Shown here: one piece after another, positions 24,722 through 55,052 of the stretch | Layout of the letters: every line of letters begins with the position of its first letter | How positions within the stretch are numbered: the stretch's first letter is position 1 | Assembly: GCA_023396365.1 (NCBI GenBank) | Contig: JAEWWL010000007.1 | Location: 1,288 to 65,287 of the forward strand | DNA: 64,000 nucleotides | Reading direction: 5' to 3' | Source of the DNA: Methanobacteriota archaeon | GTDB lineage: Archaea; Halobacteriota; Methanomicrobia; Methanomicrobiales; Methanomicrobiaceae | Program-made: the position numbers and the translations under genes | Notes under the pieces: generated by a model | The model's input: only the letters and a program-made list of their open reading frames with translations | Database searches by the model: none | Told to the model about the DNA's origin: nothing

Positions 24722-24740
24722 AATTAAAGGAGATTTGCAA

Positions 24741-25466
24741 ATGACAGGTAAGGTATATCTTGTCGGTTCCGGTCCGGGAGGACTTGGACTGATGACATTT
24801 CGTGCAAGAGAAGTTATTGACAGCGCTGATGTAATTTTATATGACCAGCTTCCGGGAGAAGAGATTTTATCATCGCTTCCTGATGTTGAAAAGATTGATG
24901 TCGGAAAATACGGCGGGAAGCATACAAAAGAGCAGGATGAGATTGAAAAGCTGATGGTTAAGTATGCACAGGAGGAAAAGACTGTCGTACGCTTAAAAGG
25001 TGGAGATCCATTCCTGTTTGGTCGCGGCGGAGAGGAGATGGAGACTCTTAGAAATTACGGCATCCGTGTTGAGATGGTTCCGGGAGTTACAAGCGCAATC
25101 GCCGTTCCTGAATGTGTCGGAATTCCTGTAACTCACAGGAAGTTTGCATCGCAGGTTACATTTCTGACAGGCCATGAAGACCCAAAAAAAGAGGAGTCTG
25201 CAATAAACTGGAAATGGCTGGCCGGCTCTCCCGGAACAATAGTTGTTTTAATGGGTGTTAAAAATCTTTTCAATATTACAAAGGCTTTGATGGAAAACGG
25301 GATGGATAAGAAAAAGCCGGTTGCAATAATTGAGCGCGGCCTTCGTCCTGACCAGAGAGTAACCATTGGAACTCTTGAAACAATATCTGAAACTGCCGCA
25401 CAAAGAAATGTAAAACCTCCTGCAATAATTGTAATAGGTGAGGTTGTAACACTATTTGAGGAATAA
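24741..25466 (+). CDS. cobA: uroporphyrinogen-III C-methyltransferase (SUMT)
   Basis: MTGKVYLVGSGPGG... and GGDPFLFGRGGEE motifs. I use ATG 24741, preceded by AAAGGAG. The ORF-track start at 24663 would overlap hemC and add non-conserved residues. Confidence 0.92.
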   Translation: MTGKVYLVGSGPGGLGLMTFRAREVIDSADVILYDQLPGEEILSSLPDVEKIDVGKYGGKHTKEQDEIEKLMVKYAQEEKTVVRLKGGDPFLFGRGGEEMETLRNYGIRVEMVPGVTSAIAVPECVGIPVTHRKFASQVTFLTGHEDPKKEESAINWKWLAGSPGTIVVLMGVKNLFNITKALMENGMDKKKPVAIIERGLRPDQRVTIGTLETISETAAQRNVKPPAIIVIGEVVTLFEE

Positions 25467-38464: not shown

Positions 38465-39148
38465 ATGCATCTAAATCCTTTTGTGAGCGAAAGGCCAAAA
38501 GCAATTTTATTTGATATGGATAATACCCTGTTTGATTTTTCTGACGCCAAAATAAAAGCCTGCTCATCTGTTGCGGAGATGCTTGAATCAGGCACTGGTG
38601 AAGAGCTGCTAAGATATTTTCTCTATGGAAATTTTGGATTTGAGAATCATGGAAATATCAGAAAATACATGGAGGATTATAAAATCTGGGATGAAGACAA
38701 CTACAAATCAGCCATTGACATTTACGAATCCGTAAAGCTTGAATCAATTGAGGCATACCCCGGCGTATATGAAACTCTTCCGATAATAGAGGCAGCCGGA
38801 ATTAAAATGTCAATTGTAACCGATGCCGAAAGCACCCAGGCAAAGAAGAGAATAGCAAAAATTGGTCTGCACAAATATTTTCAGGACATTATCACACCTG
38901 ATCTTTCAGGGAAAAGAAAGCCCGAGCCGGATACATTTTTAATGGCGCTTGAGAAGCTTTCAGCTCTTCCATGCAATTCAATGGTTGTCGGCGACAGCCC
39001 CAGAAGAGAGATAGAGCCATGCAATAAGCTCGGGATTGCAACAGTATATGCAAGATACGGTGACTGGCTGAAAATACCGACACCCGGCGCAAAACCGGAT
39101 TATACAATAGATAATTTTTTTGAACTTACAGATATTTTAAAAATTTAA
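38465..39148 (+). CDS. HAD-superfamily hydrolase (subfamily IA-like phosphatase)
   Basis: Motif I ILFDMDNTLFDF, motif IV VVGDSPRREIE. I start at ATG 38465, because the GTG-initiated ORF-track extension (38315) adds ~50 non-conserved residues. ATG 38438 is also possible. Confidence 0.8.
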   Translation: MHLNPFVSERPKAILFDMDNTLFDFSDAKIKACSSVAEMLESGTGEELLRYFLYGNFGFENHGNIRKYMEDYKIWDEDNYKSAIDIYESVKLESIEAYPGVYETLPIIEAAGIKMSIVTDAESTQAKKRIAKIGLHKYFQDIITPDLSGKRKPEPDTFLMALEKLSALPCNSMVVGDSPRREIEPCNKLGIATVYARYGDWLKIPTPGAKPDYTIDNFFELTDILKI

Positions 39149-39150
39149 AC

Positions 39151-39207
39151 TCAGCTTTTTACATGCCAAAATTTAAAATCAGCTTTTTTACATTTCAAAA
39201 TTCAAAA
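39151..39207. repeat. imperfect tandem duplication, 28/29 nt x 2 (tcagctttttacatgccaaaatttaaaa / tcagcttttttacatttcaaaattcaaaa)
   Basis: Read directly, in the convergent spacer between the HAD gene and aIF5A. Confidence 0.9.
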
Positions 39208-39272
39208 TTTAAAATTTAAGATAAACTTGTGTTTTAATTTCAGATAAAAAAATATTTTTTTAATATTTTATA

Positions 39273-39656
39273 TCATTCATTGTCAAGCTTTCTTTTACCC
39301 ATTGATGAGATATACGGAACTTCTGTTCCTGCCTGAAGTTTTGAGGCTTCTTCTTCTGTGAGAGTCTGTTCAAACATATCAAAATCCTTTACATCCATAA
39401 ACTGAACTGTTGCTCCTGATATGGATATGACCTGCGCGGACCTGCGCTCTACAACCGGTACATATGTTTTTGCTGTAACTGGCTGGACAATTGAGCGTTT
39501 GACTCCGTCAAAAATACCGACAACATCTATCCTTGATTTGGCTGCGCCATGCTTTCCGGGCTTTGAGATAGCAATTCCAAGTATTTTGCATGGTTCTTCA
39601 TCGACGACTACATATCGTCCTTCCTTTAATTTTCCAACTTCAGTCTGTTCTTTCAT
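39273..39656 (-). CDS. eif5a: translation initiation factor 5A (aIF5A)
   Basis: MKEQTEVGKLKEGRYVVVDEEPCKI..., with the hypusination loop SKPGKHGAAKSRI. ATG 39656 is chosen over the upstream TTG of the ORF track. Confidence 0.95.
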   Translation of the reverse strand: MKEQTEVGKLKEGRYVVVDEEPCKILGIAISKPGKHGAAKSRIDVVGIFDGVKRSIVQPVTAKTYVPVVERRSAQVISISGATVQFMDVKDFDMFEQTLTEEEASKLQAGTEVPYISSMGKRKLDNE

Positions 39657-39737
39657 AATGATCAAACTCCATTATGTATATTACAATCAACTTAAATAAA
39701 TTCAGCGAAGAATCATGAAATATACAGGTGCAAAAGT

Positions 39738-40514
39738 ATGAATTTTCTGGATTGTTGTGAAGAGATCGCAAAAGAGGTGACTGATGCAATCTCCCCTCTC
39801 ATCGGAACAGATGAGGCTGCTCTTTTTATCAAAGAGGGCGCAGACAAAACACCCACAAAAAAAATTGACCAGGTTGCAGAGGATATTGTAATAGACTATC
39901 TTAAGAAAAATTCACTATGCAGGACTTTAATCAGTGAGGAGGCCGGCTGCGAGGAAATCGGAGGAAAAAAAGGTACAATATACCTTGATCCTGTTGACGG
40001 AACACATAACGCAATCACAGGAAACCCGTTTTATGCACTGTCAATTGCCTATGCAGAGGATGGAATAATCAAAAATGCGTATGTAAAAGACCTTGCCCAC
40101 GGAGAATTCTTTTACGCAGAAAAGGATAAGGGAGCATTTAACAACGGCAAAAAAGTGAAGGTCTCAACAACAGATCTTTTGGAGAAAAGCACAATCAGTG
40201 TTTACGGAAAGAAATTTGATCCTGAAACAATAGTTAAAATCGGAGAAAAAATAAGGAGATGGAGGCTTTACGGTGCATCCGCTCTTGAGCTCTGCTACGT
40301 CGGATGCGGCAGGCTTGACGGTTTTATAGATCTTAGAAACACTCTTCGCGTAACTGATGCTGCGGCAGGAATGCTTTTTTGCAGGGAGGCCGGAGGTATT
40401 GTTACAGACAAAAACGGCAGCCCCATAAGATTTTCAGATGATGTAAGCCAGGGCCAGTGCCTTGTAGCAACAAACGGCCTTATTCACAAAAAAACAATCG
40501 AATACCTGAGGTGA
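39738..40514 (+). CDS. inositol-monophosphatase/FBPase-family phosphatase (likely NADP phosphatase partner of NAD kinase)
   Basis: 258 aa. IMPase motifs ISEEAG, YLDPVDGTHNA and WRLYGASALELCYVGCGRLDGF. Lies immediately upstream of NAD kinase, in the same order as the fused bifunctional enzyme of Methanocaldococcus (from memory). Confidence 0.85.
   Translation: MNFLDCCEEIAKEVTDAISPLIGTDEAALFIKEGADKTPTKKIDQVAEDIVIDYLKKNSLCRTLISEEAGCEEIGGKKGTIYLDPVDGTHNAITGNPFYALSIAYAEDGIIKNAYVKDLAHGEFFYAEKDKGAFNNGKKVKVSTTDLLEKSTISVYGKKFDPETIVKIGEKIRRWRLYGASALELCYVGCGRLDGFIDLRNTLRVTDAAAGMLFCREAGGIVTDKNGSPIRFSDDVSQGQCLVATNGLIHKKTIEYLR
40508..40514 (+). promoter_or_regulatory. Shine-Dalgarno-like GAGGTGA upstream of an in-frame ATT in the NAD kinase frame
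   Basis: GAGGTGA matches the complement of the archaeal 16S 3' end. It overlaps the IMPase stop codon and ends 4 nt before ATT 40519. Confidence 0.5.
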
Positions 40515-40518
40515 AATT

Positions 40519-41337
40519 ATTAAGTTTGTTCTGGTTGCAAGACCTGATGACGAAAGCGCTCTTATGCTTGCAAAAGATATTTCCGGTTTTTTAAAAGATA
40601 ACGGCCAGGAGATTATCTGTGAAAACAAAACCTCACTTGCACTTAATCTTGGGGAGGGAGTGGATTTTAAGAATCTCTTTGGAGATATCGCACTTGTAAT
40701 CGGCGGCGACGGAACAGTGCTTCATACAGTACGTCAGTTAAATAAACAGATTCCGATTATAGGAATCAATCGCGGCCGTGTCGGTTTTTTAACAGATCTT
40801 GAGCCTGAGGAGGCGGAGGAATATCTCAAAAAAATAATCGCAGGCGATTATAAAATTGAGAAAAGGATGCGCCTTTATCTTAGTGTTGACGGAGAGTACG
40901 CAGGAGAAGCATTAAACGAGGCAGTAATTGTCTCCTCACGTCCGGCAAAAATCCTTCAGCTCACAATTAATATCGATCATGTCCCTGCCGAAAGATTCCG
41001 TGCAGACGGAGTTATAATCAGCACGCCGACCGGTTCAACAGGCTATGCCATGAGTGCCGGCGGGCCGATTGTCGATCCCTGGACAGACGGATTTTTGATT
41101 GTTCCGCTTGCGCCTTACTATCTTTCTTCAAGGCCGCATATTGTGAGCAGCAAGAGAAGACTCTTAATTGAGCTTGACAGCACAAAGCCTGCAGATCTTG
41201 TAATAGACGGCCAGCACATAACAGAGCTTTACAACGGAAATGTTCTGTCAATTGAAAAATCCTCAGAGCCCGCCCTGTTCATCAATGCCGGCAAAAATTT
41301 CTTCGCAAAGGTTGACAGAAAGCTAAAAAACCTCTGA
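40519..41337 (+). CDS. nadK: NAD(+) kinase (probable non-ATG start; first ATG is at 40564)
   Basis: GGDGTVL, NRGRVGFL and STPTGSTGYAMSAGGP motifs. The frame is open from 40510, and the residues before the first ATG (I-KFVLVARPDDESAL-M) look like the conserved first beta-strand/helix of archaeal NAD kinases (MKFGIVAR..-type N-termini). Confidence 0.85.
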   Translation: MKFVLVARPDDESALMLAKDISGFLKDNGQEIICENKTSLALNLGEGVDFKNLFGDIALVIGGDGTVLHTVRQLNKQIPIIGINRGRVGFLTDLEPEEAEEYLKKIIAGDYKIEKRMRLYLSVDGEYAGEALNEAVIVSSRPAKILQLTINIDHVPAERFRADGVIISTPTGSTGYAMSAGGPIVDPWTDGFLIVPLAPYYLSSRPHIVSSKRRLLIELDSTKPADLVIDGQHITELYNGNVLSIEKSSEPALFINAGKNFFAKVDRKLKNL

Positions 41338-41511
41338 TGAATCAAAAAGAACCTAAAATAATATTTCTGATCTTTAAAAAACTTTTCAGAAATCAGAAAA
41401 AAATCTTTTTTTAAAAGACCATTTTTAATTGTAAAAAGCAATTTCATTTAATTTGTAAAAGGCTTATCTTCTTTTGAGTTTAAACTCTATCCAGCAGGTG
41501 TTACTGAATAT

Positions 41512-42012
41512 ATGCAGGTATCAATGAAGCTTGAAATACAGGACTTGCCGGGCCAGCTGGTTAATGCATTAAAACCGGTATCTGAAGTCGGGGGAAATAT
41601 AAAATCAGTTATTCATGTAAGGGATCCTCTATCGGATGCAAAAACACTTGATGTGGAGATTGCACTTGAGCTTCCCGAAGGAAAACTCGACACTCTAAAA
41701 GAGATGCTTAAAAAAAGCGGGGTTTCAATCTTAAGAATCGGCGAAGAGCGTTTTCTTGTAAGAAAATCAGTGATTCTCGTCGGTCATCTGATGCATACAG
41801 ACTTAAGCGACACCGTAGACAAAATCGATGAAACAGGATATGCAGAAGTAGGGGAGCTTTCGATGATAATGCCTGCAATAAATGAGCCGACATCTGCCAA
41901 AATGACAATAAAGTCAGAGAGCTTTGAGGATATCAGCCGTGCAATGGAGATATTAAGGCAGGTTGCAAAGCAAAAGGAGATTTTAATTGTCGAACCTCTG
42001 GAGGGAATCTGA
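41512..42012 (+). CDS. ACT-domain protein (amino-acid-binding regulatory type)
   Basis: 166 aa. N-terminal ACT-like LEIQDLPGQLVNALKPVSEVGGNIKSVIH. Its stop overlaps the hom start (TGATG). This pairing is typical in methanogens. Confidence 0.65.
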   Translation: MQVSMKLEIQDLPGQLVNALKPVSEVGGNIKSVIHVRDPLSDAKTLDVEIALELPEGKLDTLKEMLKKSGVSILRIGEERFLVRKSVILVGHLMHTDLSDTVDKIDETGYAEVGELSMIMPAINEPTSAKMTIKSESFEDISRAMEILRQVAKQKEILIVEPLEGI

Positions 42013-42998
42013 TGAGAATCGCTATTCTTGGATTTGGATCTGTTGGAAGAGGTATTGCAGAAATAATAAGCAAAAAAGAATTGGGAATCACAATTACTGC
42101 CATTGCCGATTCAAGGAGCGGAGTAATTGACAAAAACGGTGTTGATATCTCAGAAGTTTCTGCAAGAAAAGATAATACAGGTTTTGTCGGAGACACCGGC
42201 ATAAAGCCTGAGGATATTTTAAATTCAGATGTTTATGATGTGCTTGTCGAGGTAACTCCGACAAATGCACAGACAGGGCAGCCGGCGCTTGACTACATCA
42301 GATGCGCTCTTTTGAAGGGAAAAAGTGTAGTCACATCAAACAAAGGGCCTGTTGCTCTTGAATATAAAAAACTTAAGGCAGCTGCTGAAGAAAACGGCTG
42401 TGTTTTAAAATACGAGGCAACCGTCTGCGGTGCAATCCCGATAATTCATGCACTTGAGCACGGACTTGCAGGAAACAGGATAAAAAGAATTTACGGAGTA
42501 TTCAACGGAACATGCAATTATATCCTTACGAGAATGTCTGATGAAAAACTAACCTATCAGCAGGCTCTTTTGGAGGCGCGTGAGCTCGGATATGCCGAAG
42601 CAGACCCGACATATGACATAAAAGGCATTGATGCGGCAATAAAGCTTGTAATTCTTGCCAACACAATATTCGGATTTGATAAAAAATTAAGTGATGTTGA
42701 AATAACAGGAATTGACAGAATTCCTTTTGAGGCGCTTGAGCTTGCACTTTTGGATGAAAAAACAATACGCCTGATAGGAGAGATTGACGCTGATAAGGAA
42801 ATACTTAAGGTGTCTCCTAAAATTCTTCCAAAAAACCACACTCTTGTTGTCCGCGACACCCTCAACGCAGTTACAGCAGAAACCGATCTTGCCGGTGATG
42901 TTACATTCATTGGAAAAGGCGCAGGCTCCACAGAAACCGCAAGTGCGGTAATCTCAGATCTGCTTTTTATAAGTGAGTGCAATGGCAGGCGTAATTGA
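42012..42998 (+). CDS. hom: homoserine dehydrogenase
   Basis: 328 aa. NAD motif IAILGFGSVGRG, VVTSNKGPVA, and GTCNYILT / AEADPTYDIKGIDAA motifs. Confidence 0.9.
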   Translation: MRIAILGFGSVGRGIAEIISKKELGITITAIADSRSGVIDKNGVDISEVSARKDNTGFVGDTGIKPEDILNSDVYDVLVEVTPTNAQTGQPALDYIRCALLKGKSVVTSNKGPVALEYKKLKAAAEENGCVLKYEATVCGAIPIIHALEHGLAGNRIKRIYGVFNGTCNYILTRMSDEKLTYQQALLEARELGYAEADPTYDIKGIDAAIKLVILANTIFGFDKKLSDVEITGIDRIPFEALELALLDEKTIRLIGEIDADKEILKVSPKILPKNHTLVVRDTLNAVTAETDLAGDVTFIGKGAGSTETASAVISDLLFISECNGRRN

Positions 42999-44106
42999 AA
43001 AGAGACGTGAACTGCTGGAATTAATGAGAGAGTGCACTCTCAAAAACGGCTTTTTTACTGTTCATGATATCGAGGAGCAGACAAATATTGCACGAAGCAC
43101 AATTCAGGACTGGATTAACCGTTTATCTGAAGAGAACTGCATATTGCTAAAAGAGGAGAAGCGCGGACGCTATCCTGCAAAGTATATTTCAAAAAGCACA
43201 ATGCTTCAGACTGCATGCAAACGGATTTTTACAACAGTTGATAAAAACAATGTTGCAATTTTTCATGAATGCAGAAGCTATGGCTGTGCATCATTCTGCC
43301 ACCACCATCATCTTCTTGCAGGCGGCTGTATCTTAAAAGCGCAGAGAGAAGGAAATCTTCTTGTTGAATATGCCTGCCTTGATGGCAAATTTAAAGAACC
43401 CGTCAAGATCGGACTCTACCCAGATTCTGCTGTCGGAGTTTTGGATGTTCGTTGTGATGACGGATTTATAGTCCAGAGGATTCGGTGCATTGGCGGACCT
43501 GCCTATTCTCTTACTGACATGATGGGAATGGCGCAGGGCGTTTGTGATATTCAAATTGACATTAAGGGAAAGATTGTTGAAGGCAATGTATATACAAAAT
43601 CACTCACTCACATGGTTATTGGCGTCGATGACACAGATACAAAAGAGGGTGGTGCAACATTTGCCCTTGCTCTTGGCCTTTTGCAGTATCTTGGAAACTT
43701 AAAAGGAGTAATCCCGATATCGCACAGGGTTGTGATGCTAAACCCAAAACTTTCAGACTGCACTGCGGGAAATTCATGCAGCTATATTGAGCTTGCAGTA
43801 CTTCCTGAAAATGCCGAACAGATAAAGGAAATTGCCGCAAGATTTGTTGAGGATGAATCACTGTCACAAAACTGGGGCATTGCTGTAAAAACAGGATTTA
43901 TTATATCAAAAAATTTAAGAAATTACGGAATGCAGGCCAGAAATTCAGTACTGACTGATGAGTCTGCAAAAAAAACTGCGGCTGATGAGGATATATTCAT
44001 AAAAGGAAAAAGGGGAATAATCGGTGCACTTGCAGCTGTATCTTTCCGTGGGCTTGAAAATGATACTTTGCTTAATTTTTCGGCAAAACCGGATGCATTA
44101 TTATGA
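42982..44106 (+). CDS. wHTH + Cys/His-rich domain + TiaS-kinase-domain-like (DUF1743-like) protein, function unknown
   Basis: About 374 aa from ATG 42982 (GTG 42973 in the ORF track). N-terminal HTH-like FTVHDIEEQTNIARSTIQDWINRLSEE, then the middle segment CRSYGCASFCHHHH. The C-terminal half IGVDDTDTKEGGATFALA...RVVMLNPKL..TAGN...GKRGIIGALAAV parallels the DDTDS...RLNP...GLIGALAA pattern of the TiaS N-terminal domain (from memory). Confidence 0.55.
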   Translation: MAGVIEKRRELLELMRECTLKNGFFTVHDIEEQTNIARSTIQDWINRLSEENCILLKEEKRGRYPAKYISKSTMLQTACKRIFTTVDKNNVAIFHECRSYGCASFCHHHHLLAGGCILKAQREGNLLVEYACLDGKFKEPVKIGLYPDSAVGVLDVRCDDGFIVQRIRCIGGPAYSLTDMMGMAQGVCDIQIDIKGKIVEGNVYTKSLTHMVIGVDDTDTKEGGATFALALGLLQYLGNLKGVIPISHRVVMLNPKLSDCTAGNSCSYIELAVLPENAEQIKEIAARFVEDESLSQNWGIAVKTGFIISKNLRNYGMQARNSVLTDESAKKTAADEDIFIKGKRGIIGALAAVSFRGLENDTLLNFSAKPDALL

Positions 44107-45422
44107 TTAATTCTAAAGATGAAAAGCAGGCTGCCCCTGTCTTTGATGTATTCAATGTATTTTTTGATCGGATATATGAGCCCTCAATGCATATCGTCTT
44201 TTGTTCTGATGGCATAATTGACGATATAATCCTTAAAAAAGCAGTCACTCAGTATTTAAAATCCGATCCATATCTTTCATCACGCTTTGAAATAAAAGAC
44301 GGCATGTATTTCTGGCATCATGAGTCAGGCTATAAAACAGAGGATTATTTTTATCTTAAAAAAATTGCGGGATCTGCAGAATACATTCTAAACAATCCCC
44401 CGCCGCCTGTGAATGTATACAAAGGGCCGCAGATAAGAGCCGGAATTTACAGAAATGAAAGCTCTGATTTTTTGGTTTTTTCATGTCATCACGGATTTTG
44501 CGATGCCGGCGGCCTTAAATTCATGGCAAAAGAGATCTTTTCCATTTACCGCGAATTAAAAAAGAATCCTCTCTATATTCCGGAGTACAAAGGCTGGTAT
44601 TACAGAGGGACTAAGGATATTTTAGATAAATTCTCCCCTGAATACATAAAATCCGTTCTTGCAGACGAAACTCCTTTCTCTGACAGATGGGCTTTTCCTT
44701 TTGAATATATAGGACGCGGAACACCTCAGTTTTCAATGAGAAAATTATCGCCTGTCCGGATGAAAAAAATAAAGGAATTTGGAAAAAAATATAATGCGAC
44801 TGTAAATGATATTTTAATCGGGGCTTTTTTCCTTGCTCTTTTAAAGATTAATTCCTGCGATTCCGATGAGGAAAGTGAAAAATCAATCCTTACATCTGCC
44901 GATATCAGGAAGTATTATGGAAGGGATTTTGACAATCATCCGCAAAACTTATCTGTTGCTTTTCAGATTTCTCTTAAGGCAAAAAGAGATTATGAATTAA
45001 AAGATATCATCGAAGAGACTGCAAAAATAACCCGGCGGAAAAAATCAAAAGACCTCGGCCTTGGCTGCATTGCATTTTATGAAAAGATTTTTTCAGAGGG
45101 GGAATTTTTTATAAACGGCTTTTTTGACAATATGATGCAGTCTTATGAGAAGACAAATTTTAAAAATCCGGTTTTTTCAAACATAGGAATCATTGATGAA
45201 AATTATTTTTTAAACCTCAAAGCCAAAAATAATACAGATTTGAATGTTACTGATGCATTTTTCCTGCCTGTTGTCTGCCATCCGCCCGGATTTTTAATGA
45301 CTGCATCTACATTTAAAGACTCTATTTTTATTGTCTGCGGATATGAAGAGGGGCCTTACTCTAAGGAAACTGTTGAGAGATTTTTAGAATATACTGATTT
45401 TCTCATCTTAGGCAATGACTGA
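44103..45422 (+). CDS. condensation-domain-like / CoA-dependent acyltransferase superfamily protein (HHxxxDG)
   Basis: 439 aa. Catalytic motif FSCHHGFCDAGG at about residue 128, a mid-protein NATVNDILIGAFFLAL, and a late FSNIGI, in the order expected for C-domain/PapA5/WS-DGAT-type enzymes. ATGA overlap with the upstream gene. Confidence 0.7.
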   Translation: MINSKDEKQAAPVFDVFNVFFDRIYEPSMHIVFCSDGIIDDIILKKAVTQYLKSDPYLSSRFEIKDGMYFWHHESGYKTEDYFYLKKIAGSAEYILNNPPPPVNVYKGPQIRAGIYRNESSDFLVFSCHHGFCDAGGLKFMAKEIFSIYRELKKNPLYIPEYKGWYYRGTKDILDKFSPEYIKSVLADETPFSDRWAFPFEYIGRGTPQFSMRKLSPVRMKKIKEFGKKYNATVNDILIGAFFLALLKINSCDSDEESEKSILTSADIRKYYGRDFDNHPQNLSVAFQISLKAKRDYELKDIIEETAKITRRKKSKDLGLGCIAFYEKIFSEGEFFINGFFDNMMQSYEKTNFKNPVFSNIGIIDENYFLNLKAKNNTDLNVTDAFFLPVVCHPPGFLMTASTFKDSIFIVCGYEEGPYSKETVERFLEYTDFLILGND

Positions 45423-45463
45423 ATATTATATCTTAAATAATACAAACGAAAAATCAGATACTA

Positions 45464-45952
45464 ATGTGTGAAGATGCAAAAATAAAAAATTATATCACTC
45501 TGCTGTCCAGTCCGGATAAACAGGTGCGTGAAAGCGCCACTCATTCTCTTGCAAACTGCGGCAGCAGAGCGGTATTAAGTCTTATAAATGTTCTTGACAG
45601 TCCTGACTGGATAGTAAGATACAGGGCGGCTGAAGCGCTTGGACAGATAAAGGATGAAAGGGCAGTAAATTCCCTTACACAAAAATTAAGGGATCAAAAA
45701 GACCATGTCCGCTATATGGCAGCAAAAGGTCTTGGTTTTTCCGGGAAAAAAGAGCTTTCGTTATCTCTTGTGCCGCTTCTAAGAGATGAAAATGAGTACG
45801 TGCGAAGAATAACCGCACAGTCTCTTGGAATGCTTGGAGGAGACACTGCATACAAATCACTTTTAAAAGCAAAAGATATAGAGACAGATTCAAAGGCAAA
45901 AGAAGCGATGACTGCTGCAATAATCAGAATAAAGCCTGATGCAGATATTTAA
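45464..45952 (+). CDS. HEAT-repeat (PBS-lyase type) protein
   Basis: 162 aa. Four to five repeats of the type D..VR..A..ALG.....AV..L...L.D (for example SPDWIVRYRAAEALGQIKDERAV and DQKDHVRYMAAKGLG). Confidence 0.8.
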   Translation: MCEDAKIKNYITLLSSPDKQVRESATHSLANCGSRAVLSLINVLDSPDWIVRYRAAEALGQIKDERAVNSLTQKLRDQKDHVRYMAAKGLGFSGKKELSLSLVPLLRDENEYVRRITAQSLGMLGGDTAYKSLLKAKDIETDSKAKEAMTAAIIRIKPDADI

Positions 45953-46067
45953 AAGGAAAAAATTAAATTTTTTTTTATTTTTTAAAAATTTAAAGATTGC
46001 AGGCTTTCTTTGAAACGTCCAAAAAATTTTAAATTAAATAAAATTAAAAAAAATACAGCAGGAAAAA

Positions 46068-46850
46068 TTAAATCTCTAATAGCTCTGCTGCCTCTTTTAG
46101 TCCGGAATATGATGTTGAATCAAGAATAATTGGTGTTATTGAAATATTTCCGTTTGCAACAGAATGCACATCTGTTCCTTTTGGTGCGTCTTCATAAAGA
46201 GGGCCGTTGATCCAGAAATACGGCCTTCCGCGTGGATCAAGCCTTTTTTCAACACCGGTATCAAACAATTTTTCAGCAAGATGTGTAACTTCATATTTTC
46301 CGGTGAATTTTTGGGGAATATTTACATTTATGACATCACTTTTTTTGGGAAAGCCGTTCTTTAACAGATTTTTGCATATTTTTACAATTGCATCCTTTGC
46401 ATCGGTGAAATCAAGGCGTGAGTATTTCGGATCATCAAATTTTTCACCCTGATCTTCGACCTGAAGAGAAAAAGCAACAGAATTATAGCCGTGATTTGCG
46501 GCTTCAAGTGCAGCACCAATTGTTCCTGAAGTCATTACAGATTCAAACGATAAATTTTCACCAATATTTATGCCTGATACAACAAGATCTGGTTTTATCT
46601 TAAGGGCAAAGAGTCCGATTATGACAGAATCCGTCGGTTTTCCTCCGACAGAGTATGCCTCTTTTCCGTTCATTATGATTTTACTGGCTCTTATCGGTTC
46701 AAATATAGATATAGATCTTCCAACAGCACTCTGCTGTGTTGAAGGTGCAACAACAGTTACATCTGCAAAACCTGAAAGGGCATCATATGCAGCCCAAAGA
46801 CCCTCGGATGTTACGCCGTCATCATTTGTTAAGAGAATTTTTGGTCTCAT
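46068..46850 (-). CDS. surE: 5'/3'-nucleotidase SurE
   Basis: MRPKILLTNDDGVTSEGL... with GINIGEN and SGTIGAALEA motifs. ATG 46850 is preferred to the ORF-track start at 46871. Confidence 0.92.
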   Translation of the reverse strand: MRPKILLTNDDGVTSEGLWAAYDALSGFADVTVVAPSTQQSAVGRSISIFEPIRASKIIMNGKEAYSVGGKPTDSVIIGLFALKIKPDLVVSGINIGENLSFESVMTSGTIGAALEAANHGYNSVAFSLQVEDQGEKFDDPKYSRLDFTDAKDAIVKICKNLLKNGFPKKSDVINVNIPQKFTGKYEVTHLAEKLFDTGVEKRLDPRGRPYFWINGPLYEDAPKGTDVHSVANGNISITPIILDSTSYSGLKEAAELLEI

Positions 46851-46987
46851 AATTAATTCCTTTATTAACATGCTCTTTAATAAATAAGATGTTTTGCTGT
46901 AAAGTTTAAAATAAAAATGCCAAAACGGGATTTAGACAAGTATAATAACTTTTGTTTCTAAACAAAAATATTAATTGTGTGATTTTC

Positions 46988-48325
46988 ATGTCAGATAAAA
47001 ATTATATCCATGCCGGTTTTGCCATTTTAATCCTTGCTCTTCTAACAGCAGTCGCACCTGCCCTTGCAGGCACAATATATTACTACCAGGACACTCCGGT
47101 AGCATCCCCCGAATATTTAACGCTTAAAGGTTTTTCAGTATCAGGAGAAACTGCCGAAATTTATCCGGGTGATGAAGTCACTGCAAAATACATGATTCAC
47201 TATGAACCCCAATCATACAATCAGCTTGTAATCGATCAGCCGGGTGGTCTTTATTTTGATCTTACCGATCCTGACGGGACTACAACAAGGCTTGGAACAA
47301 ATTACATAGGAAAAACAATAGAGCCTGATGCATATATCAGCATAACCGAATCATTCACCCCGGACAAGCCGGGAACATGGAAGATATCTCCTGCCTATAC
47401 TGTCGTCCAGGGAAACCTGATGTCAAAAAAATCAAATCCAAAGAACTGGCAGACAGCTGAAATTCATGTTAAAGGTATAAGCAAGCCCAGGCCTGATCTT
47501 ATAATCAGTGATGCCAAAGCCGAGTTTGATGCTGAATTGGGAATTATCTCCAGAATATCATACACAATAAAAAATACAGGCGATGCCGACTCACAGCCAA
47601 GCTCATCCATAATTTATATTGACGGATATGAAAACAGCATGATAAGCAGCACAGGGTATCTTCCATCCGGTGAGAGTGCAACAATTTTTGAGCCGGCAGG
47701 GGTAAAATACTCAGGAAGCAGCACTCTTTTAAAAATAGAGGCCGACTATGCCAAACTGATAAATGAATCTGACAAAGAAAACAACAAATTCGAGATAGTT
47801 GTTCAAAATCCGGGATATATACTCCCGAATAAGGATACCAAAAACGAAGCACCCGCATATGAAAGCCTGCCGGTTTTGGAGAGCAAACCTGTTGCAGCTA
47901 CTGAGTATAATGTCTGCCCCGTTCAGGGGGGATGCTTTGACATCTGCTTTTTATGCGCTGTTGCTGGTGTTTTGTCAATTCTGGTCTCAGTTCTTTCATT
48001 TGCACTTGGCTACTATTATGGATTAAATAAAAACTGTGAGCGTGAAGTCCTGTGGATGAGATCAAAATTAGAGATTTTAAGGACAGGAAGTAAAAATTCA
48101 TACTCTGCAAAGGAGATGAAAAAAGAAAATGTTGCAAAAGTAATGGAAGAAAACCTGGATAAGGCAGTAAAAAATCTTGATAAAAAAGATGAGAATAAAA
48201 AAGATAAAACTGCTGATAAAAATCCTGATAAACAGGATGAGAATAAAAAAGACAGTAGTGATGACAAAAAAGACAATAAAGATGAGATAAATAAAGAGAA
48301 TAAAGATAACAAAAAAACTGATTAG
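46988..48325 (+). CDS. secreted CARDB-like domain protein with single TM anchor and Lys/Asp/Asn-rich cytoplasmic tail
   Basis: Signal-like MSDKNYIHAGFAILILALLTAVAPALA. CARDB-like segment PDLIISDAKAEFD...YTIKNTGDADS...ESDKENNKFEI. TM segment FLCAVAGVLSILVSVLSFALGYYYGL, then the tail DKKDENKKDKTADKNPDKQDENKKDSSDDKKDNKDEINKENKDNKKTD. Confidence 0.7.
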   Translation: MSDKNYIHAGFAILILALLTAVAPALAGTIYYYQDTPVASPEYLTLKGFSVSGETAEIYPGDEVTAKYMIHYEPQSYNQLVIDQPGGLYFDLTDPDGTTTRLGTNYIGKTIEPDAYISITESFTPDKPGTWKISPAYTVVQGNLMSKKSNPKNWQTAEIHVKGISKPRPDLIISDAKAEFDAELGIISRISYTIKNTGDADSQPSSSIIYIDGYENSMISSTGYLPSGESATIFEPAGVKYSGSSTLLKIEADYAKLINESDKENNKFEIVVQNPGYILPNKDTKNEAPAYESLPVLESKPVAATEYNVCPVQGGCFDICFLCAVAGVLSILVSVLSFALGYYYGLNKNCEREVLWMRSKLEILRTGSKNSYSAKEMKKENVAKVMEENLDKAVKNLDKKDENKKDKTADKNPDKQDENKKDSSDDKKDNKDEINKENKDNKKTD

Positions 48326-48419
48326 CAAAGATGTGAATAAAAAAGAAAATAAGGAATAATAAAAAGACTCTTTTTTTAATCGTTATCCTCATGTGCATTA
48401 AAGTTCAAAATTAATATTG

Positions 48420-49310
48420 ATGAAGGCACTTATCGCCGAATATACAGTTTTCAATGATCCAAAACTGGCGCCTGAAGGCGGTGCCATGCTAAATATTCTA
48501 AAAAGCAGTTTCATACGCTGCGGATATGAAGTACTTACACCACAGGCCGGAGACTTCGCACAGGAGCTTAAAAGACTCTCGCCAAAGTGCGACGTAGGTC
48601 TTGTCATAGCACCCGATGACATTCTCTCAAAATTTACAAAAATAATAGAGGACAATACAAGAAATATCGGCTGCGGAAGTTTGAATATCGCAATATGCTC
48701 CAACAAGCGCCGCACTGGATCAATTCTCTCTGCTAACGGAATTGATGTTCCAAAAGAGATTGACAAAGGATACAGGCTTATTAAAAAAATTGACGGCGTT
48801 GACGCACAGAACATGCGTTTATCAGACGGGCCCTGCAAAGAAGGCGAGTTTGGCCAGGAGTTTGTAAAAGGCGACAACATCAGTGTAAGCCTTGTCGGCG
48901 GAAGAGTGACCGGGGATACATGCCTTTCATACAGTGGAAAAAAACCTCTGGTTCTATCTTTAAACAGACAGTACATAGAAAAAGAAGGAGATAAATTTTT
49001 TTACAGGGGCGGAGAGACGCCGGTTTTTCATCCGCGTGAGGATGAAATAATAAAGACTGCTGAAAAATGCATCAACGTTCTTGGCTGCCAGGGATATACA
49101 GGCATAGATATGATTGTATCGGATGAGAGAATCTGTGTCGTTGATGTAAACCCGCGTCCGACAACAAGCCTTGTCGGAATATGCAGCATCATGAAAGAGG
49201 AGATTGCCGATATTTTAGTTGAGTCCTCAAAAGGAAATGTCCCGGACAGTGTTCACCTGACCGGCAGGGTATCTTTTAATACAAAAGGGGAGGTTTTTAA
49301 AATTGAGTGA
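48420..49310 (+). CDS. ATP-grasp ligase, MfnD (tyramine--L-glutamate ligase)-like
   Basis: About 296 aa. ATP-grasp C-terminal core GYTGIDMIVSDERICVVDVNPRPTTS. The size and the pairing with the next gene fit the methanofuran/H4MPT-linked ATP-grasp family (from memory). Confidence 0.6.
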   Translation: MKALIAEYTVFNDPKLAPEGGAMLNILKSSFIRCGYEVLTPQAGDFAQELKRLSPKCDVGLVIAPDDILSKFTKIIEDNTRNIGCGSLNIAICSNKRRTGSILSANGIDVPKEIDKGYRLIKKIDGVDAQNMRLSDGPCKEGEFGQEFVKGDNISVSLVGGRVTGDTCLSYSGKKPLVLSLNRQYIEKEGDKFFYRGGETPVFHPREDEIIKTAEKCINVLGCQGYTGIDMIVSDERICVVDVNPRPTTSLVGICSIMKEEIADILVESSKGNVPDSVHLTGRVSFNTKGEVFKIE

Positions 49311-50238
49311 TATTATCGGAATAGATGTGGGCGGCGCCAACCTTAAGATATATGACAGCGGCTCTGTTGAAATTTATTATTGCCCGATGTGGAAGAAAGC
49401 TCCCTTAAAAAAACTTCTTGAATCATATTCGGATAAAAAAGCGGCTGTTGTTATGAGCGGTGAGCTTGCCGACGGATTTTCCTGTAAAGATGAAGGCATC
49501 AAGTTTATCTTCGGTTCAGTTAAAGAGGCAGTGCCTGACTCATTATTTTACGGAACAGACGGCGTGTTTCATGATGAGCCGTTGTCTTCACTTGCAGCGG
49601 CAAACTGGGTTGCATCCGCAGATTTTTTAAGAGAGAGATATAAAAACAGCGTCCTAATTGATTTTGGAAGCACAACAGCAGACATTATTCCTCTCAACTC
49701 ATTTGATTCACTTAAAGGAATGACTGATTTGGACCGTCTCAGAAGAGGCTATCTGGTCTATACAGGAACACTTAGGAGTACAATTCCGTCACTTCTAAGG
49801 ACTGTGAGTGTTTGCGGTTATGAAACACTTGTAAGCAGCGAGTACTTTGCACAGAGTGCCGATGCACATCTTGTTCTTGGGAATATAAGCCCTGATGATT
49901 ACACAACACCAACTCCTGACGGGGCAGAGGTTTCCTGCAGGGCATCGCTTCAGAGACTTTCAAGAGTAGTATGCTCTGATTTGGATGAGATTGGAAAGCT
50001 GGGAGCACTTGAGATTGCGGATGCATTTTATTATGAGCAGATGAATCTGATAAAAAAATATGCAGATCTGACTCTTGAAAAAACACATTCAGAAGATATA
50101 ATCGCGGCAGGCATCGGATCGCATATAATATCAGAATTTTTTGGCTGCACTGATCTTGGACGTGAAGAGGGTATTTTTTCGGATGCTCTTCCTGCCTTTG
50201 CTGTAAGTGAGGTGGCAAAACGGACAGGTATCTTTTAA
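49303..50238 (+). CDS. hydantoinase/oxoprolinase-family protein, H4MPT-linked C1-transfer / MfnF-like
   Basis: 311 aa. N-terminal ASKHA-type phosphate loop IIGIDVGGANLKI and later IDFGSTTADIIP. TTG start at 49303, preceded by GGGGAGG (49287-49293). Overlaps the ATP-grasp gene by 8 nt. Confidence 0.6.
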   Translation: MSDIIGIDVGGANLKIYDSGSVEIYYCPMWKKAPLKKLLESYSDKKAAVVMSGELADGFSCKDEGIKFIFGSVKEAVPDSLFYGTDGVFHDEPLSSLAAANWVASADFLRERYKNSVLIDFGSTTADIIPLNSFDSLKGMTDLDRLRRGYLVYTGTLRSTIPSLLRTVSVCGYETLVSSEYFAQSADAHLVLGNISPDDYTTPTPDGAEVSCRASLQRLSRVVCSDLDEIGKLGALEIADAFYYEQMNLIKKYADLTLEKTHSEDIIAAGIGSHIISEFFGCTDLGREEGIFSDALPAFAVSEVAKRTGIF

Positions 50239-52644: not shown

Positions 52645-53232
52645 CTAAATTCCCGGAGTATATTTGTTCTTATTTCTATAGAACGGCATATAAATTATTC
52701 TATAGGAATTGATGTTAAAGTCATAGTCTATCTCCTGAAGTGTTCCGGAAATATCAGCCTCATGCCTTAAAAACATAAATTCAGAATGCTGCTTTGCAGC
52801 CTCATTGTCAATTGCCGCAGGAATTCTTGCAACTCCGTTGAAACTTTTCTGCTCTTCAATTACAGGCGGCTCAAGCGTGAAATCAACATTCCATTCTTTA
52901 ACAATATCAGGCGCAATGTCGGCCGCACATACAAAAAGATTCTGGTTTCCGGCCATCTTCTTCTCGCTTTTAATAAATCTCATGATTCTGCCGCCGACAA
53001 TCTTTTCCCTGTTTACTTTTATGTCAGTGTTTATAACCCAGAAGGGCATGTATACCTTATCAGAACTTTCGTCTTTTTTGAATGCGGCAATTGTGCTGTC
53101 GACTTTATGGACATCACCGTTAAGAAACTCCATAACATTTTCGCATTTGCTGCAGACAAAGATGTTGTCTCTTTCCTTAGAGGTTAAAGGTGTGCCGCAG
53201 TTTGTGCATTTAAGCGTCTTTAAAGAAACCAT
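52645..53232 (-). CDS. Zn-ribbon protein, soluble paralogue (operon member C)
   Basis: 195 aa. N-terminal CTNCG...CSKC ribbon and two copies of a hydrophobic-Y/F-x-P-F-W/Y strand (VYMPFWVINT, IIYMPFYRNK), as in the two upstream genes. No TM segment. Confidence 0.65.
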   Translation of the reverse strand: MVSLKTLKCTNCGTPLTSKERDNIFVCSKCENVMEFLNGDVHKVDSTIAAFKKDESSDKVYMPFWVINTDIKVNREKIVGGRIMRFIKSEKKMAGNQNLFVCAADIAPDIVKEWNVDFTLEPPVIEEQKSFNGVARIPAAIDNEAAKQHSEFMFLRHEADISGTLQEIDYDFNINSYRIIYMPFYRNKNKYTPGI

Positions 53233-53234
53233 GA

Positions 53235-54269
53235 TTACTTCCTCCTGAGCAGTATCTCAACATTGCCGGTTTTTGCCGCCTGTGCTGCATCCGCACCCTG
53301 TCCCTGTTTTTTAAAGGCTGCTGTCAGGTTAATTGAGGGTTTTTGAAGATCTCCGACAATAATTTCTGATTTGTATCTGAACTGATAATAAGACATATAC
53401 AAAACTGCAAGTCCGACAATGCTTGTTGCAACAACAAGGCCGCTCTCCTCAAGAATTGAAAATCCAAGACCAATACCTGTTATTGCACCGCCAATGCTTC
53501 CTCCCGCACCAATCGAAAGACTCTGGTAGAGAGGATCTCCTGGTGCTCTTCCGGATAAAATTTCGCCTGTTATTCCGTCTGTGACTGCAAAGTAATCCCT
53601 GTCTGAATAGTTGTACCTTACAACCCAGAATGGATAGAATATAAGCTCAAAAGCCTTGGGATCGACAAAAATCTTTGAGAACGTAACTTTTTCAATTCTG
53701 CCTCTTGCGTTTGAATAAGTCATGTCGGCAATTTTTTTCCTGCCCTCTTCTAATGCATCACTTTTGGATTCTGTTGCTTCAAAGGTTGGAATCTCCTCCT
53801 CTTCATAAGGAACAATATCACCTTTGATATTTCGAAGGTAGGAAACACCGATATCCCCTGCATCGCATGCGATTATTGTATAGAGATAATCAGAATCCCA
53901 GACATTATTGTAATAATTTTTTGTTGTCTTTCCATCGTCATCCTTGTCTTCGGAATATCCGCAGATAATTGCTTTTCCTCTTCCTAAAAGACGCCAGAAC
54001 GGGAGATACAGAGGATAGCTTTCAGTGATCTCGCCTTTTTGCGGCAGATCACGAGCTTTAAATCCGCCTTTAAACCAGCTTTTTACATTTGAAACTGCCT
54101 TGTCGCGGTCAAGGACCATTTTATACATATATTTTGCAGTTCCCTCTTTTGACTCAAGAGAATGCACACTGCTGCAGAACGGGCATAAAACTATCTGCTC
54201 TCCCTCAAAAACTTCAACTCTTCCTCCGCAGGAAGGGCAGTTCATTCCAAAAACAATTCTTTCTGCCAT
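53235..54269 (-). CDS. Zn-ribbon membrane protein (operon member B)
   Basis: 344 aa. N-terminal CPSCGG...CPFC ribbon, repeated strands LYLPFWRLLG and IFYPFWVVRY, and two Gly-rich TM helices near the C-terminus. Confidence 0.65.
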   Translation of the reverse strand: MAERIVFGMNCPSCGGRVEVFEGEQIVLCPFCSSVHSLESKEGTAKYMYKMVLDRDKAVSNVKSWFKGGFKARDLPQKGEITESYPLYLPFWRLLGRGKAIICGYSEDKDDDGKTTKNYYNNVWDSDYLYTIIACDAGDIGVSYLRNIKGDIVPYEEEEIPTFEATESKSDALEEGRKKIADMTYSNARGRIEKVTFSKIFVDPKAFELIFYPFWVVRYNYSDRDYFAVTDGITGEILSGRAPGDPLYQSLSIGAGGSIGGAITGIGLGFSILEESGLVVATSIVGLAVLYMSYYQFRYKSEIIVGDLQKPSINLTAAFKKQGQGADAAQAAKTGNVEILLRRK

Positions 54270-54272
54270 AAT

Positions 54273-55052
54273 TTAAGCCTCCGCAGGTGTCTGTGGCTCT
54301 CCAGGCATCTCAGGTGTTTTTGTAACCTTCATTGCAAAGTAGTAGCCGGTAAAAAAAGCTGCAGCAACAAGGACGTAAAAAACAAAGGAGACAAGTATTC
54401 CCAAAAGGCCGCCTATAAAGGCAAGTCCGAAACTTCCTAATGCAACAAGCCCGTAAGGAATAGATGATCTTGCAGGATAATTTGAAGAATATACTTTTCC
54501 TGATGAGCCGTCGATTACAACTTTGTAGGACTGGCCTTCAAATTCATAGTCAACTTCATATATCGGGAAATATACTAAAGCCTGCTCTTTTCCGACTCCT
54601 TCAAGATCATTTATGTACGCATCCATTCCAAAATCGACATCGAGAACTTTTGCATCTCCCGGTTTGAAGGATTCATCAAAAATCCTGATATCACCGGCAG
54701 GAATTAAAAGATTATTCATTCCCGGAAGAATTGTTCCCTTTGCAGGTTTTATATCAATTTTTTCCTTTCCGTTTACATCTCTTCTAAACTGGTAAACCGG
54801 GAAATACTGCTTGCTTATAGCAATTATTTTTGCTTTTGATTCAAGCTCCTTATCAGCGTGTGGATTTGCGGTCCACCTTTTGAATATTCCCTTTGCTTTC
54901 TCATCAGTTATGAAGAACGGAAGGACATAATAAAACATCACACCGCTTCTGTCCACAAAAACAGTAGTGCCGCAGTATTTGCAGCTTGTTAAGTGGATGC
55001 CTGTACTGACATTCACATCTCCGCCGCATTTGGGGCATGCAAAACTTGACAT
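54273..55052 (-). CDS. Zn-ribbon membrane protein (operon member A)
   Basis: 259 aa. N-terminal CPKCGG...CKYCG ribbon, repeated strands YFPVYQFRRD and VYFPIYEVDY, and two C-terminal TM helices followed by a Pro/Glu tail. Confidence 0.65.
   Translation of the reverse strand: MSSFACPKCGGDVNVSTGIHLTSCKYCGTTVFVDRSGVMFYYVLPFFITDEKAKGIFKRWTANPHADKELESKAKIIAISKQYFPVYQFRRDVNGKEKIDIKPAKGTILPGMNNLLIPAGDIRIFDESFKPGDAKVLDVDFGMDAYINDLEGVGKEQALVYFPIYEVDYEFEGQSYKVVIDGSSGKVYSSNYPARSSIPYGLVALGSFGLAFIGGLLGILVSFVFYVLVAAAFFTGYYFAMKVTKTPEMPGEPQTPAEA

Follow-up and report, generated by a model that had tools for sequence, protein, structure and literature searches.

To our knowledge, the TCKD kinase fold has a single characterized job, which is the formation of agmatidine on tRNA-Ile2 by the enzyme TiaS. 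In the Archaeoglobus fulgidus enzyme, residues D8, D9 and D11 are the aspartates that handle metal and ATP, and Thr18 is the autophosphorylated threonine after which the domain is named. The same fold is found in stand-alone proteins such as that of Pyrococcus furiosus (PDB 3u02) and in methanogenesis marker protein 11 (Mmp11, the MJ0921 family). Here we describe a gene of a Methanomicrobiaceae archaeon (assembly GCA_023396365.1, contig JAEWWL010000007.1, positions 1,288 to 65,287) whose product carries a TCKD-like domain behind a predicted winged helix-turn-helix (wHTH) domain and a middle domain with a Cys/His cluster. The 64-kb stretch analyzed is referred to below as the window. An initial annotation, made from the sequence alone, had proposed that this wHTH/TCKD protein activates a substrate for an adjacent condensation-type enzyme. 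We find that the protein presents the TCKD/Mmp11 superfamily in a new architecture and operon context that are widely conserved, although the TCKD fold and the Mmp11 family themselves were known, and that its conserved partner is a pair of genes encoding an ACT-like protein and homoserine dehydrogenase (hom).

The reading frame of the wHTH/TCKD gene spans 42973-44106 (377 codons). Because homologues begin with MAGVIEK, the ATG at 42982 is taken to be the true start. Residues are numbered here from 42973, and subtracting 3 gives the numbering from the ATG. The gene and its domains are as follows.

42982..44106, + strand: protein of 374 amino acids (aa) with wHTH, Cys/His middle domain and TCKD-like domain, the third and final conserved cistron of its operon
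42982..43206, + strand: N-terminal winged helix-turn-helix, residues 4-78 (weak Pfam matches, structure model, Foldseek)
43207..43611, + strand: middle domain, residues 79-213 (TIGR03280 alignment from profile position 3; domain model)
43612..44052, + strand: TCKD-like kinase domain, residues 214-360 (motifs, Pfam, NCBIfam, fold match)

The C-terminal domain can be recognized by profile, fold and motif. The Pfam model TiaS_TCKD (PF22641) matches at E 3.2e-8, with 34.2 bits against a gathering score of 27, and the NCBIfam model for TiaS (NF040849) aligns residues 214-358 with its positions 3-152 of 422 (E 3.5e-12, 45.6 bits). When a profile of 12 orthologues was compared with PDB sequences, the best match was 3u02 (1.4e-13), and A. 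fulgidus TiaS (3au7 and 3amt) was matched at about 2e-7. The AlphaFold model (pLDDT 81.7) is paired by Foldseek with 3u02 and 3amt at E values of 2e-10 to 2e-8 and a root-mean-square deviation (rmsd) of 2-3 Å over approximately 150 residues. This resemblance to the TCKD of TiaS, which the initial annotation had perceived over roughly the C-terminal half of the protein, is far above chance. The OB fold and Zn ribbon of TiaS are absent, as had also been noted, and the protein ends only 17 residues past the TCKD.

Key residues of the domain are D219-D220-T221-D222, T229, TAGNS at 264-268 and G-x-I-G-A-L-A-A at 348-355. In the HMMER alignment, D219, D220, D222 and T229 fall on D8, D9, D11 and T18 of A. 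fulgidus TiaS. An alignment across all tiers of the superfamily (see below) reveals that the wHTH family, Mmp11, stand-alone TCKD proteins and TiaS all conserve DDTD, the equivalent of Thr18 and G-x-IGALAA. As judged from these alignments, the catalytic signature of the TCKD (DDTD plus the threonine aligned with Thr18) is intact in the wHTH/TCKD protein. The KTRGN loop of TiaS reads (C/K)TAGN in the wHTH family, such that K52 of TiaS is replaced by C or K and R54 by A.

On profile evidence, the closest family is Mmp11 rather than TiaS itself. The Mmp11 model TIGR03280 aligns residues 83-360 with its positions 3-284 of 292 (E 1.8e-34), with a score of 119.2 bits against a cutoff of 255.8. Because this alignment spans both the Cys/His region and the TCKD, the two together represent a body of the Mmp11 type, with a winged helix fused to it. 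An exhaustive search of 1.84 billion representatives yielded only 144 matches, which fall into clear tiers. These are the wHTH forms of 370-390 aa (at identities down to 34%), the Mmp11-type proteins of about 300-330 aa that align from residue ~80 onward, stand-alone TCKD proteins of about 245 aa, and TiaS proteins of 410-460 aa. The wHTH tier includes all families of Methanomicrobiales, Methanocorpusculum among them, as well as a Lokiarchaeon (CR_4 type), Nezhaarchaeales and Methanomethylicia. Members of this tier score 91-178 bits with TIGR03280, whereas true Mmp11 proteins score 318-444 bits.

One Methanomicrobiales genome (GCA_034659935) carries three members of the family. Its ACT-hom-wHTH/TCKD operon lies at locus L007, and another contig (L119) encodes a true Mmp11 (296 aa, 325 bits) whose gene overlaps that of an Mmp11-like protein (319 aa, 200 bits). 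Since these forms coexist in one genome, the wHTH form is a paralogue of Mmp11 and not its orthologue. Gene order was compared by tblastn with the window proteins in 80 loci from species-representative genomes, drawn from 318 confirmed matches. No true Mmp11 or TiaS gene is present in the window or in these 80 loci.

Database names for these proteins are misleading. The wHTH family is listed as ‘sugar-specific transcriptional regulator TrmB’ and Mmp11-like proteins as ‘tRNA(Ile2) 2-agmatinylcytidine synthetase’, and the 252-aa protein of 3u02 carries both ‘TFIIS’ and ‘TiaS’ labels. One family member is assigned to the bacterial ‘Candidatus Deferrimicrobium’, which is probably a binning error. 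An Mmp11 entry labeled ‘Methanomicrobiales’ (P0476) comes from a locus that is syntenic with Methanobacterium, and it was not used as evidence.

The middle domain is common to Mmp11-type proteins only. When modeled alone (pLDDT 83.1), it is predicted to be a duplication of two beta-beta-alpha-beta-beta units, and a Foldseek search of the PDB returned nothing better than E 0.027, with only half-domain resemblances to ACT-like folds. The Cys/His cluster that the initial annotation had pointed out reads C100-x4-C105-x3-C109-HHHH113. Alignment of 12 Methanomicrobiales sequences shows no variation at seven residues, namely C82, H98, C100, C105, C109, H112 and H113. In the tier alignment, C82, H98, C100 and C109 are conserved throughout the wHTH family and absent from true Mmp11, whereas conservation of C105, H112 and H113 is limited to Methanomicrobiales. 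A GGPAYSLT motif in the same domain is likewise specific to the wHTH family. The pattern of conservation of this C-H-C-C set suggests a candidate metal site.

For the N-terminal domain, the evidence for a winged helix comprises weak Pfam matches (HTH_29, TrmB and DnaD_N) and the AlphaFold model, in which a helix-turn-helix is followed by a beta-wing and which Foldseek pairs with the wHTH domains of ROK repressors. The winged-helix-like domain named in the initial annotation thus finds agreement in the predicted structure. Its putative recognition helix, A/P-R-S-T-x-Q-D-W-x-N-R-L, is kept even in the Loki-like, Nezhaarchaeales and Methanomethylicia members. An origin by fusion with the AsnC-type helix-turn-helix gene that lies upstream of Mmp11 in locus L086 was considered and rejected, as the two show no similarity.

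The wHTH/TCKD gene occupies the third position of an operon that has the following additional elements.

41455..41469, + strand: promoter block GTAAAAGGCTTATCT, of the size of a transcription factor B recognition element (BRE) plus TATA box, 43 nt upstream of the ACT start codon (also given as 51-60 nt)
41512..42012, + strand: gene for a small ACT-like protein, first cistron (weak NCBIfam matches to ACT regions of threonine ammonia-lyase)
42012..42998, + strand: hom, homoserine dehydrogenase, second cistron (PF00742 198.5 bits; NF004912 419 bits against a cutoff of 373)

A Pfam search with the product of the first cistron gave no match. The ATG of the wHTH/TCKD gene creates a 17-nt overlap with hom, whose stop codon occupies 42996-42998. 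This arrangement is not peculiar to the window, as evident by the fact that hom lies directly upstream of the wHTH/TCKD gene, overlapping it or within a few bases, in all 76 Methanomicrobiales loci that have enough upstream DNA (76/76). The wHTH/TCKD gene is therefore translationally coupled to hom throughout this set. Both ACT and hom precede it in 71 of the 71 loci where the upstream DNA reaches far enough, and no gene is consistently present downstream across the loci. Thus, the ACT-hom pair is the conserved partner of the wHTH/TCKD gene.

Outside Methanomicrobiales the context varies. The gene is solitary in Methanomethylicia and on the Loki-like contig, and in Nezhaarchaeales it overlaps a DUF2114 gene. 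In the Nezhaarchaeales metagenome-assembled genome (MAG) concerned (L084:3563-8459), the overlap is with the end of the DUF2114 gene, itself located after mtrH; the next gene encodes an aminotransferase, and the mtrEDCBAFG operon directly adjoins this group.

The promoter region of the ACT-hom-wHTH/TCKD operon is unusually constrained. Of 72 orthologous upstream regions, whose GC contents vary widely, 42 match the block at 14 or more of its 15 positions, and among 47 non-redundant loci the conservation is sharply bounded to ~16 nt. A scan of 1.1 Mb of Methanomicrobiales DNA gave 40 copies of the 11-mer core of the block, 38 of them located at the ACT-hom promoter, with about 2 expected by chance, and the window contains a single exact copy of the block. 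Within the expected BRE/TATA, the block has G, G, C and C at non-consensus positions. From the sequence comparison, the constraint is operon-specific, and the block has the size and location of a BRE+TATA core promoter.

Several candidate regulatory features were examined and set aside. The block is asymmetric, and no dyad was found in the 47 promoters. An inverted partner, TTTTAC, is not enriched, as it occurs in 11 of the 47 compared with 7.0 expected, a level that 52 of 1000 shuffles reach. A second upstream copy of GTAAAA is enriched over mononucleotide shuffles, but this was not trusted because the DNA is A-rich. The possibility that the block travels with the wHTH gene in the distant loci L083-L085 was also dismissed, as these carry just generic BRE/TATA-like near-matches. 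In the interval 39000-47000 there is no Rfam match, so no structured RNA leader or riboswitch was detected.

Downstream of the wHTH/TCKD gene in the window lie the following genes, the first two of which the initial annotation had grouped with it.

44103..45422, + strand: stand-alone condensation-fold acyltransferase gene, 439 aa, hereafter Cond (PF00668 44.5 bits against a cutoff of 30.6, E 1.1e-11)
45464..45952, + strand: gene for a small HEAT-repeat protein, 162 aa (PF13646 89 bits)
46068..46871, - strand: surE (NF001491 370 bits against a cutoff of 290), at the end of a Cond-HEAT-SurE-CARDB block

Accordingly, the region presents five same-strand (+) genes, ACT-like, hom, wHTH/TCKD, Cond and HEAT, followed by surE on the opposite strand. 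The wHTH/TCKD stop and the Cond start share the ATGA at 44103-44106, and Cond and the HEAT gene are separated by 41 nt. The start at 42982, the overlap with hom, the ATGA junction, the 41-nt gap, and the domains of the proteins, including the Cond-type and HEAT neighbors, were all found to be as first described. Cond satisfies both marks of the condensation superfamily, a PF00668 score above the cutoff and an HHxxxD motif. This motif had been given as HHxxxDG; the HHxxxD core is present, but the actual sequence is HHGFCDAGG (residues 129-137), and H129, H130 and D134 are invariant in 12 homologues. Cond is probably an active stand-alone acyltransferase. No PHROG or PADLOC match was obtained for the TCKD or Cond protein, and a phage or defense origin was therefore rejected.

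Comparative data reveal that the proximity of Cond to the wHTH/TCKD gene is a local affair. Among the 67 loci whose downstream DNA extends for 1.5 kb or more, Cond follows wHTH/TCKD in just 3, all of them from the closest relatives. Four loci (L001-L003 and L088) share the order of the window, and because 62-132 nt separate the two genes in each, the ATGA overlap is peculiar to the window. Of 33 Cond loci collected elsewhere (31 of them metagenomic), L088 alone has a TCKD gene upstream. The two genes also differ in their ranges, since the 146 database relatives of Cond all belong to the Methanomicrobiaceae/Methanoculleus/Methanofollis/Methanogenium/Methanocalculus group, whereas the wHTH/TCKD family extends over all Methanomicrobiales plus some Asgard and TACK archaea. 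The 2.84-Mb chromosome of Methanolacinia petrolearia carries the two genes at separate places. There, Cond heads a Cond-HEAT-histidine kinase-SurE(-)-CARDB block with no wHTH/TCKD gene within 8 kb upstream. In Methanofollis formosanus, Cond stands alone.

Clustering of Cond neighbors across loci disclosed no conserved partner. The HEAT gene comes next after Cond in five loci (L001-L003, L082 and L088) and does not hold that place in approximately 30 other Cond loci, and this pairing is limited to the Methanomicrobium and Methanolacinia lineages. SurE and CARDB genes farther downstream are common to the window and Methanolacinia (synteny with L082), and our conclusion is that a Cond-HEAT-SurE-CARDB block existed first and that the hom operon was then brought next to it. 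Cond-HEAT(-SurE-CARDB) is a module of its own and not a conserved partner of the wHTH/TCKD gene, and their adjacency is a local accident of gene order. The CARDB-domain protein of the window (46952-48325) has a predicted membrane segment and a long low-complexity tail rich in Lys, Asp and Asn (KKDENKKDKTADKNPDKQDENKKD...), and its gene has the same place after surE in Methanolacinia.

Genes for Mmp11-type proteins have surroundings of their own. The L119 contig mentioned above (L119:8001-16566; GCA_034659935.1, JAYEIC010000020.1) is part of a Methanomicrobiales MAG, in which the overlapping Mmp11-like and Mmp11 genes are followed by five more same-strand genes plus a pair. The products include a LipS2-like radical SAM protein, an IOR-alpha-like thiamine pyrophosphate (TPP) enzyme, a LEU1_arch/AksA-type synthase, HacA/HacB-type dehydratase subunits, an XcbA-like protein and an AksF-type dehydrogenase. 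This gene content has the appearance of an operon for 2-oxoacid elongation and a cofactor (possibly coenzyme B), with Mmp11 at its head. An Mmp11-type gene repeatedly adjoins a radical SAM gene elsewhere (L086:5168-7936, L122:7196-10372, and L120 and L121:8001-15446). An AIRS/PurM-like gene is found as well in L122 and at the Mmp11 loci of Methanobacteriales, and in the latter order an aconitase/Aconitase_C/Iso_dh cluster is located 2-5 kb upstream of the Mmp11-type gene.

We tentatively favor an explanation, to which we assign a chance somewhat short of even, wherein two unrelated modules abut in this lineage. These are the ACT-hom-wHTH/TCKD operon, whose third cistron would be a regulator in the style of BirA, NadR or ROK proteins, and the Cond-HEAT(-SurE-CARDB) block. 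As in such regulators, the Mmp11/TCKD body might bind ATP and a metabolite, and the bound ligands would probably be turned over or T229 autophosphorylated. The state of ligand binding or turnover could then set the nucleic-acid-binding state of the winged helix, thereby coupling expression of the homoserine/threonine branch to the signal, and the Cys/His site may hold a structural or sensory metal. The constrained core promoter of the protein’s own operon would be the most obvious candidate target, and the protein may be an enzyme as well as an ATP- or ligand-responsive regulator. The Cond block, placed directly downstream in this genome, probably became co-transcribed, which would explain the ATGA overlap. 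Indirect support for a putative role as a DNA-binding transcription factor comes from the predicted wHTH fold and the operon-specific promoter block, and the lineage-dependent gene context is in keeping with this role because such variation is usual for regulators.

A number of observations weigh against a regulatory role. The connection between the wHTH/TCKD protein and the promoter block is one that we infer, and every Pfam score for the wHTH falls below its gathering threshold. The asymmetric, BRE+TATA-sized block that lacks a dyad may be an unusually constrained core promoter for another factor. Also, promoter block and recognition helix do not co-vary, because the helix is unchanged in Methanomicrobium mobile although the block there is degenerate, with 9-10 matches out of 15. 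The near-invariance of this helix from Asgard archaea to Euryarchaeota is atypical for local transcription factors and fits the docking of an enzyme on a universal macromolecule. Moreover, all catalytic residues have been kept, which speaks for a true enzyme and not a pure sensor.

Some of these same observations would be expected if the protein were an enzyme that modifies a macromolecule (tRNA, rRNA, DNA or protein), a reading that we consider unlikely, though a serious contender. The winged helix would replace the FLD, OB fold and Zn ribbon of TiaS as a docking module, the TCKD would phosphorylate the bound target at a carbonyl oxygen or hydroxyl, and linkage to hom would reflect co-expression only. 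The analogy is with TiaS, which reportedly phosphorylates C34 and its own Thr18. It draws on the invariance of DDTD, the Thr18 equivalent and G-IGALAA across all tiers, on the fold match of the TCKD to structures of the TiaS-tRNA complex (rmsd 2.2 Å), on the absence of a dyad operator and of co-variation between helix and block, and on the preservation of the PRSTxQDWxxRL helix across Euryarchaeota, TACK and Asgard archaea, which suggests a universal target. However, a role in RNA modification would not readily account for the linkage to the hom operon in all 76 loci, K52 and R54 of the KTRGN loop are changed, and the family is absent from most archaea, so that any modification would have to be lineage-specific. 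Furthermore, a search of the 64-kb window for tRNA genes found none, and no RNA family lies nearby. Another reading, which on balance we regard as improbable, is that of a small-molecule kinase or ligase acting in threonine-related metabolism and perhaps also in regulation. In its favor, the operon links the protein to hom, which catalyzes the committed step toward threonine. Such an enzyme could be a non-orthologous kinase of homoserine, threonine or a threonine conjugate, and the TCKD fold can reportedly phosphorylate a threonine hydroxyl, namely that of Thr18. Alternatively, it could be a paralogue of an Mmp11 enzyme for a late ATP-dependent step in the synthesis of coenzyme B (CoB), which is 7-mercaptoheptanoyl-threonine phosphate. 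In line with the latter, Mmp11 and its paralogue head the L119 operon with LipS2-like radical SAM, TPP enzyme and AksA/HacA/HacB/AksF-type genes, Mmp11-type and radical SAM genes are paired in L086 and L122, and an aconitase/Iso_dh cluster lies near Mmp11-type genes in Methanobacteriales. Yet the Aks-type genes of L119 fall under the equivalog cutoffs and are indistinguishable from Leu genes, and the link to CoB consists of one operon plus loose neighborhoods, a small sample. A winged helix is also unneeded for small-molecule catalysis, and the wHTH family occurs on a Loki-like Asgard contig that has no methanogenesis context.

A combination of these ideas, which strikes us as quite doubtful, is that the Mmp11 superfamily provides the long-missing ATP-dependent late chemistry of CoB synthesis (activation and coupling of 7-mercaptoheptanoate and threonine, or phosphorylation of the threonine hydroxyl). 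The wHTH paralogue would then be a BirA-like enzyme and regulator whose ligand or substrate is a CoB intermediate that contains threonine. If true, this would tie threonine supply to the demand for a methanogenic cofactor. The original proposal, in which the TCKD phosphorylates a substrate and the coupled Cond with a HEAT scaffold completes an amide or ester ligation, appealed to the ATGA overlap and the same-strand order in the window. Catalytic motifs are indeed kept in both proteins, and four close relatives have the same gene order. Nevertheless, the two genes are adjacent in 3 of 67 wHTH/TCKD loci and 1 of 33 Cond loci, with gaps of 62-132 nt, and no partner of Cond is conserved. Their separate places in Methanolacinia and their very different phyletic ranges likewise argue against it. 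By a test that the initial annotation had itself set, conservation of the pair as neighbors among related genomes, the model is refuted as a conserved system, and we consider it highly improbable for the window itself.

Three other regions of the window deserve mention. At 48417-50238, an ATP-grasp gene like MfnD (127.8 bits against a cutoff of 400) overlaps by 8 nt a hydantoinase-like gene. The product of the latter passes TIGR03123, ‘H4MPT-linked C1 transfer pathway protein’ (284.8 versus 244.1 bits), and resembles MfnF (223.8 versus 520 bits). The two genes could represent a methanofuran pair that has diverged, or else a related ligase/synthase pair. At 19750-25466 (+), overlapping genes make up a complete early tetrapyrrole operon, encoding a siroheme-synthase-like NAD-binding protein, HemA, HemB, HemL, HemC and a CobA-type methylase. 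Three consecutive open reading frames of 195, 344 and 259 aa at 52645-55052 (-) have no Pfam match at E 1e-5 or better.

The wHTH/TCKD protein represents a second widespread architecture for the TCKD, one in which the catalytic residues are intact and are joined by a probable metal site and a predicted nucleic-acid-binding head. It is locked into the hom operon across a whole order of methanogens and is also present in Asgard and TACK archaea. Its function, once solved, would inform Mmp11, one of the methanogen signature genes, whose gene neighborhoods hint at the biosynthesis of a cofactor, possibly coenzyme B. The database label ‘sugar-specific TrmB regulator’ is unsupported by the evidence, and a ‘kinase plus condensation enzyme’ system, being an accident of gene order, should not be propagated. 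A literature search retrieved no paper on Mmp11, MJ0921 or TCKD paralogues and nothing relevant on late CoB enzymes, which accords with the statement in the initial annotation that no characterized system was known to have this architecture.

Comparison with known systems places both proteins. The nearest solved relatives of Cond are the C domains of nonribosomal peptide synthetases (NRPSs), with bacitracin and tyrocidine synthetases giving the best PDB sequence matches together with PapA5. Cond differs from these in being an archaeal stand-alone protein limited to Methanomicrobiaceae and allies, and it is not part of an NRPS system, as evident by the lack of adenylation, carrier or thioesterase genes near it in the window and the 33 Cond loci. 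For the wHTH/TCKD protein, BirA, NadR, ROK repressors and TrmB offer a functional analogy only. They share an N-terminal winged helix, an enzyme-like body that binds a ligand or nucleotide, and a gene inside a biosynthetic operon, but their effector domains are not homologous to the Mmp11/TCKD body. The protein is not a TrmB, since it scores 18.6 bits with PF01978 against a cutoff of 25.6, has no TrmB_EBD match and carries an Mmp11/TCKD-like C-terminal body.

Among proteins with the kinase fold, the stand-alone TCKD protein of P. furiosus (3u02, 252 aa) is the best match to the C-terminal domain in both sequence (1.4e-13) and fold (2.4e-10), and it lacks the wHTH and the Mmp11-type middle domain. 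The likeness to TiaS (3amt, 3amu and 3au7; NF040849) is confined to the C-terminal ~150 residues, where the TCKD fold (rmsd 2.2 Å), DDTD, the threonine aligned with Thr18, LNP...T.GN and G-IGALAA are shared. The FLD, OB fold and Zn ribbon are all missing (Pfam and NCBIfam searches matched none of these regions, and the alignment with 3amt covers ~154 columns), the protein adds the wHTH and the Mmp11-type middle domain, and its gene resides in an amino-acid biosynthesis operon. With 45.6 bits where the TiaS model requires 600, it carries a TCKD domain without being a TiaS. With Mmp11, the middle domain and TCKD align end to end. However, the wHTH/TCKD protein scores under the Mmp11 cutoff, departs from the two-domain body of ~290-330 aa by its additional ~78-residue wHTH, and does not conform to a single orthologue per genome. 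Also distinctive are its C82/H98/C100/C109 set and GGPAYSLT in place of the AGAGVG of Mmp11. The wHTH/TCKD protein therefore belongs to no characterized family, and the division extends to the company that the genes keep, with true Mmp11 accompanied by a radical SAM gene and the wHTH/TCKD gene by hom.

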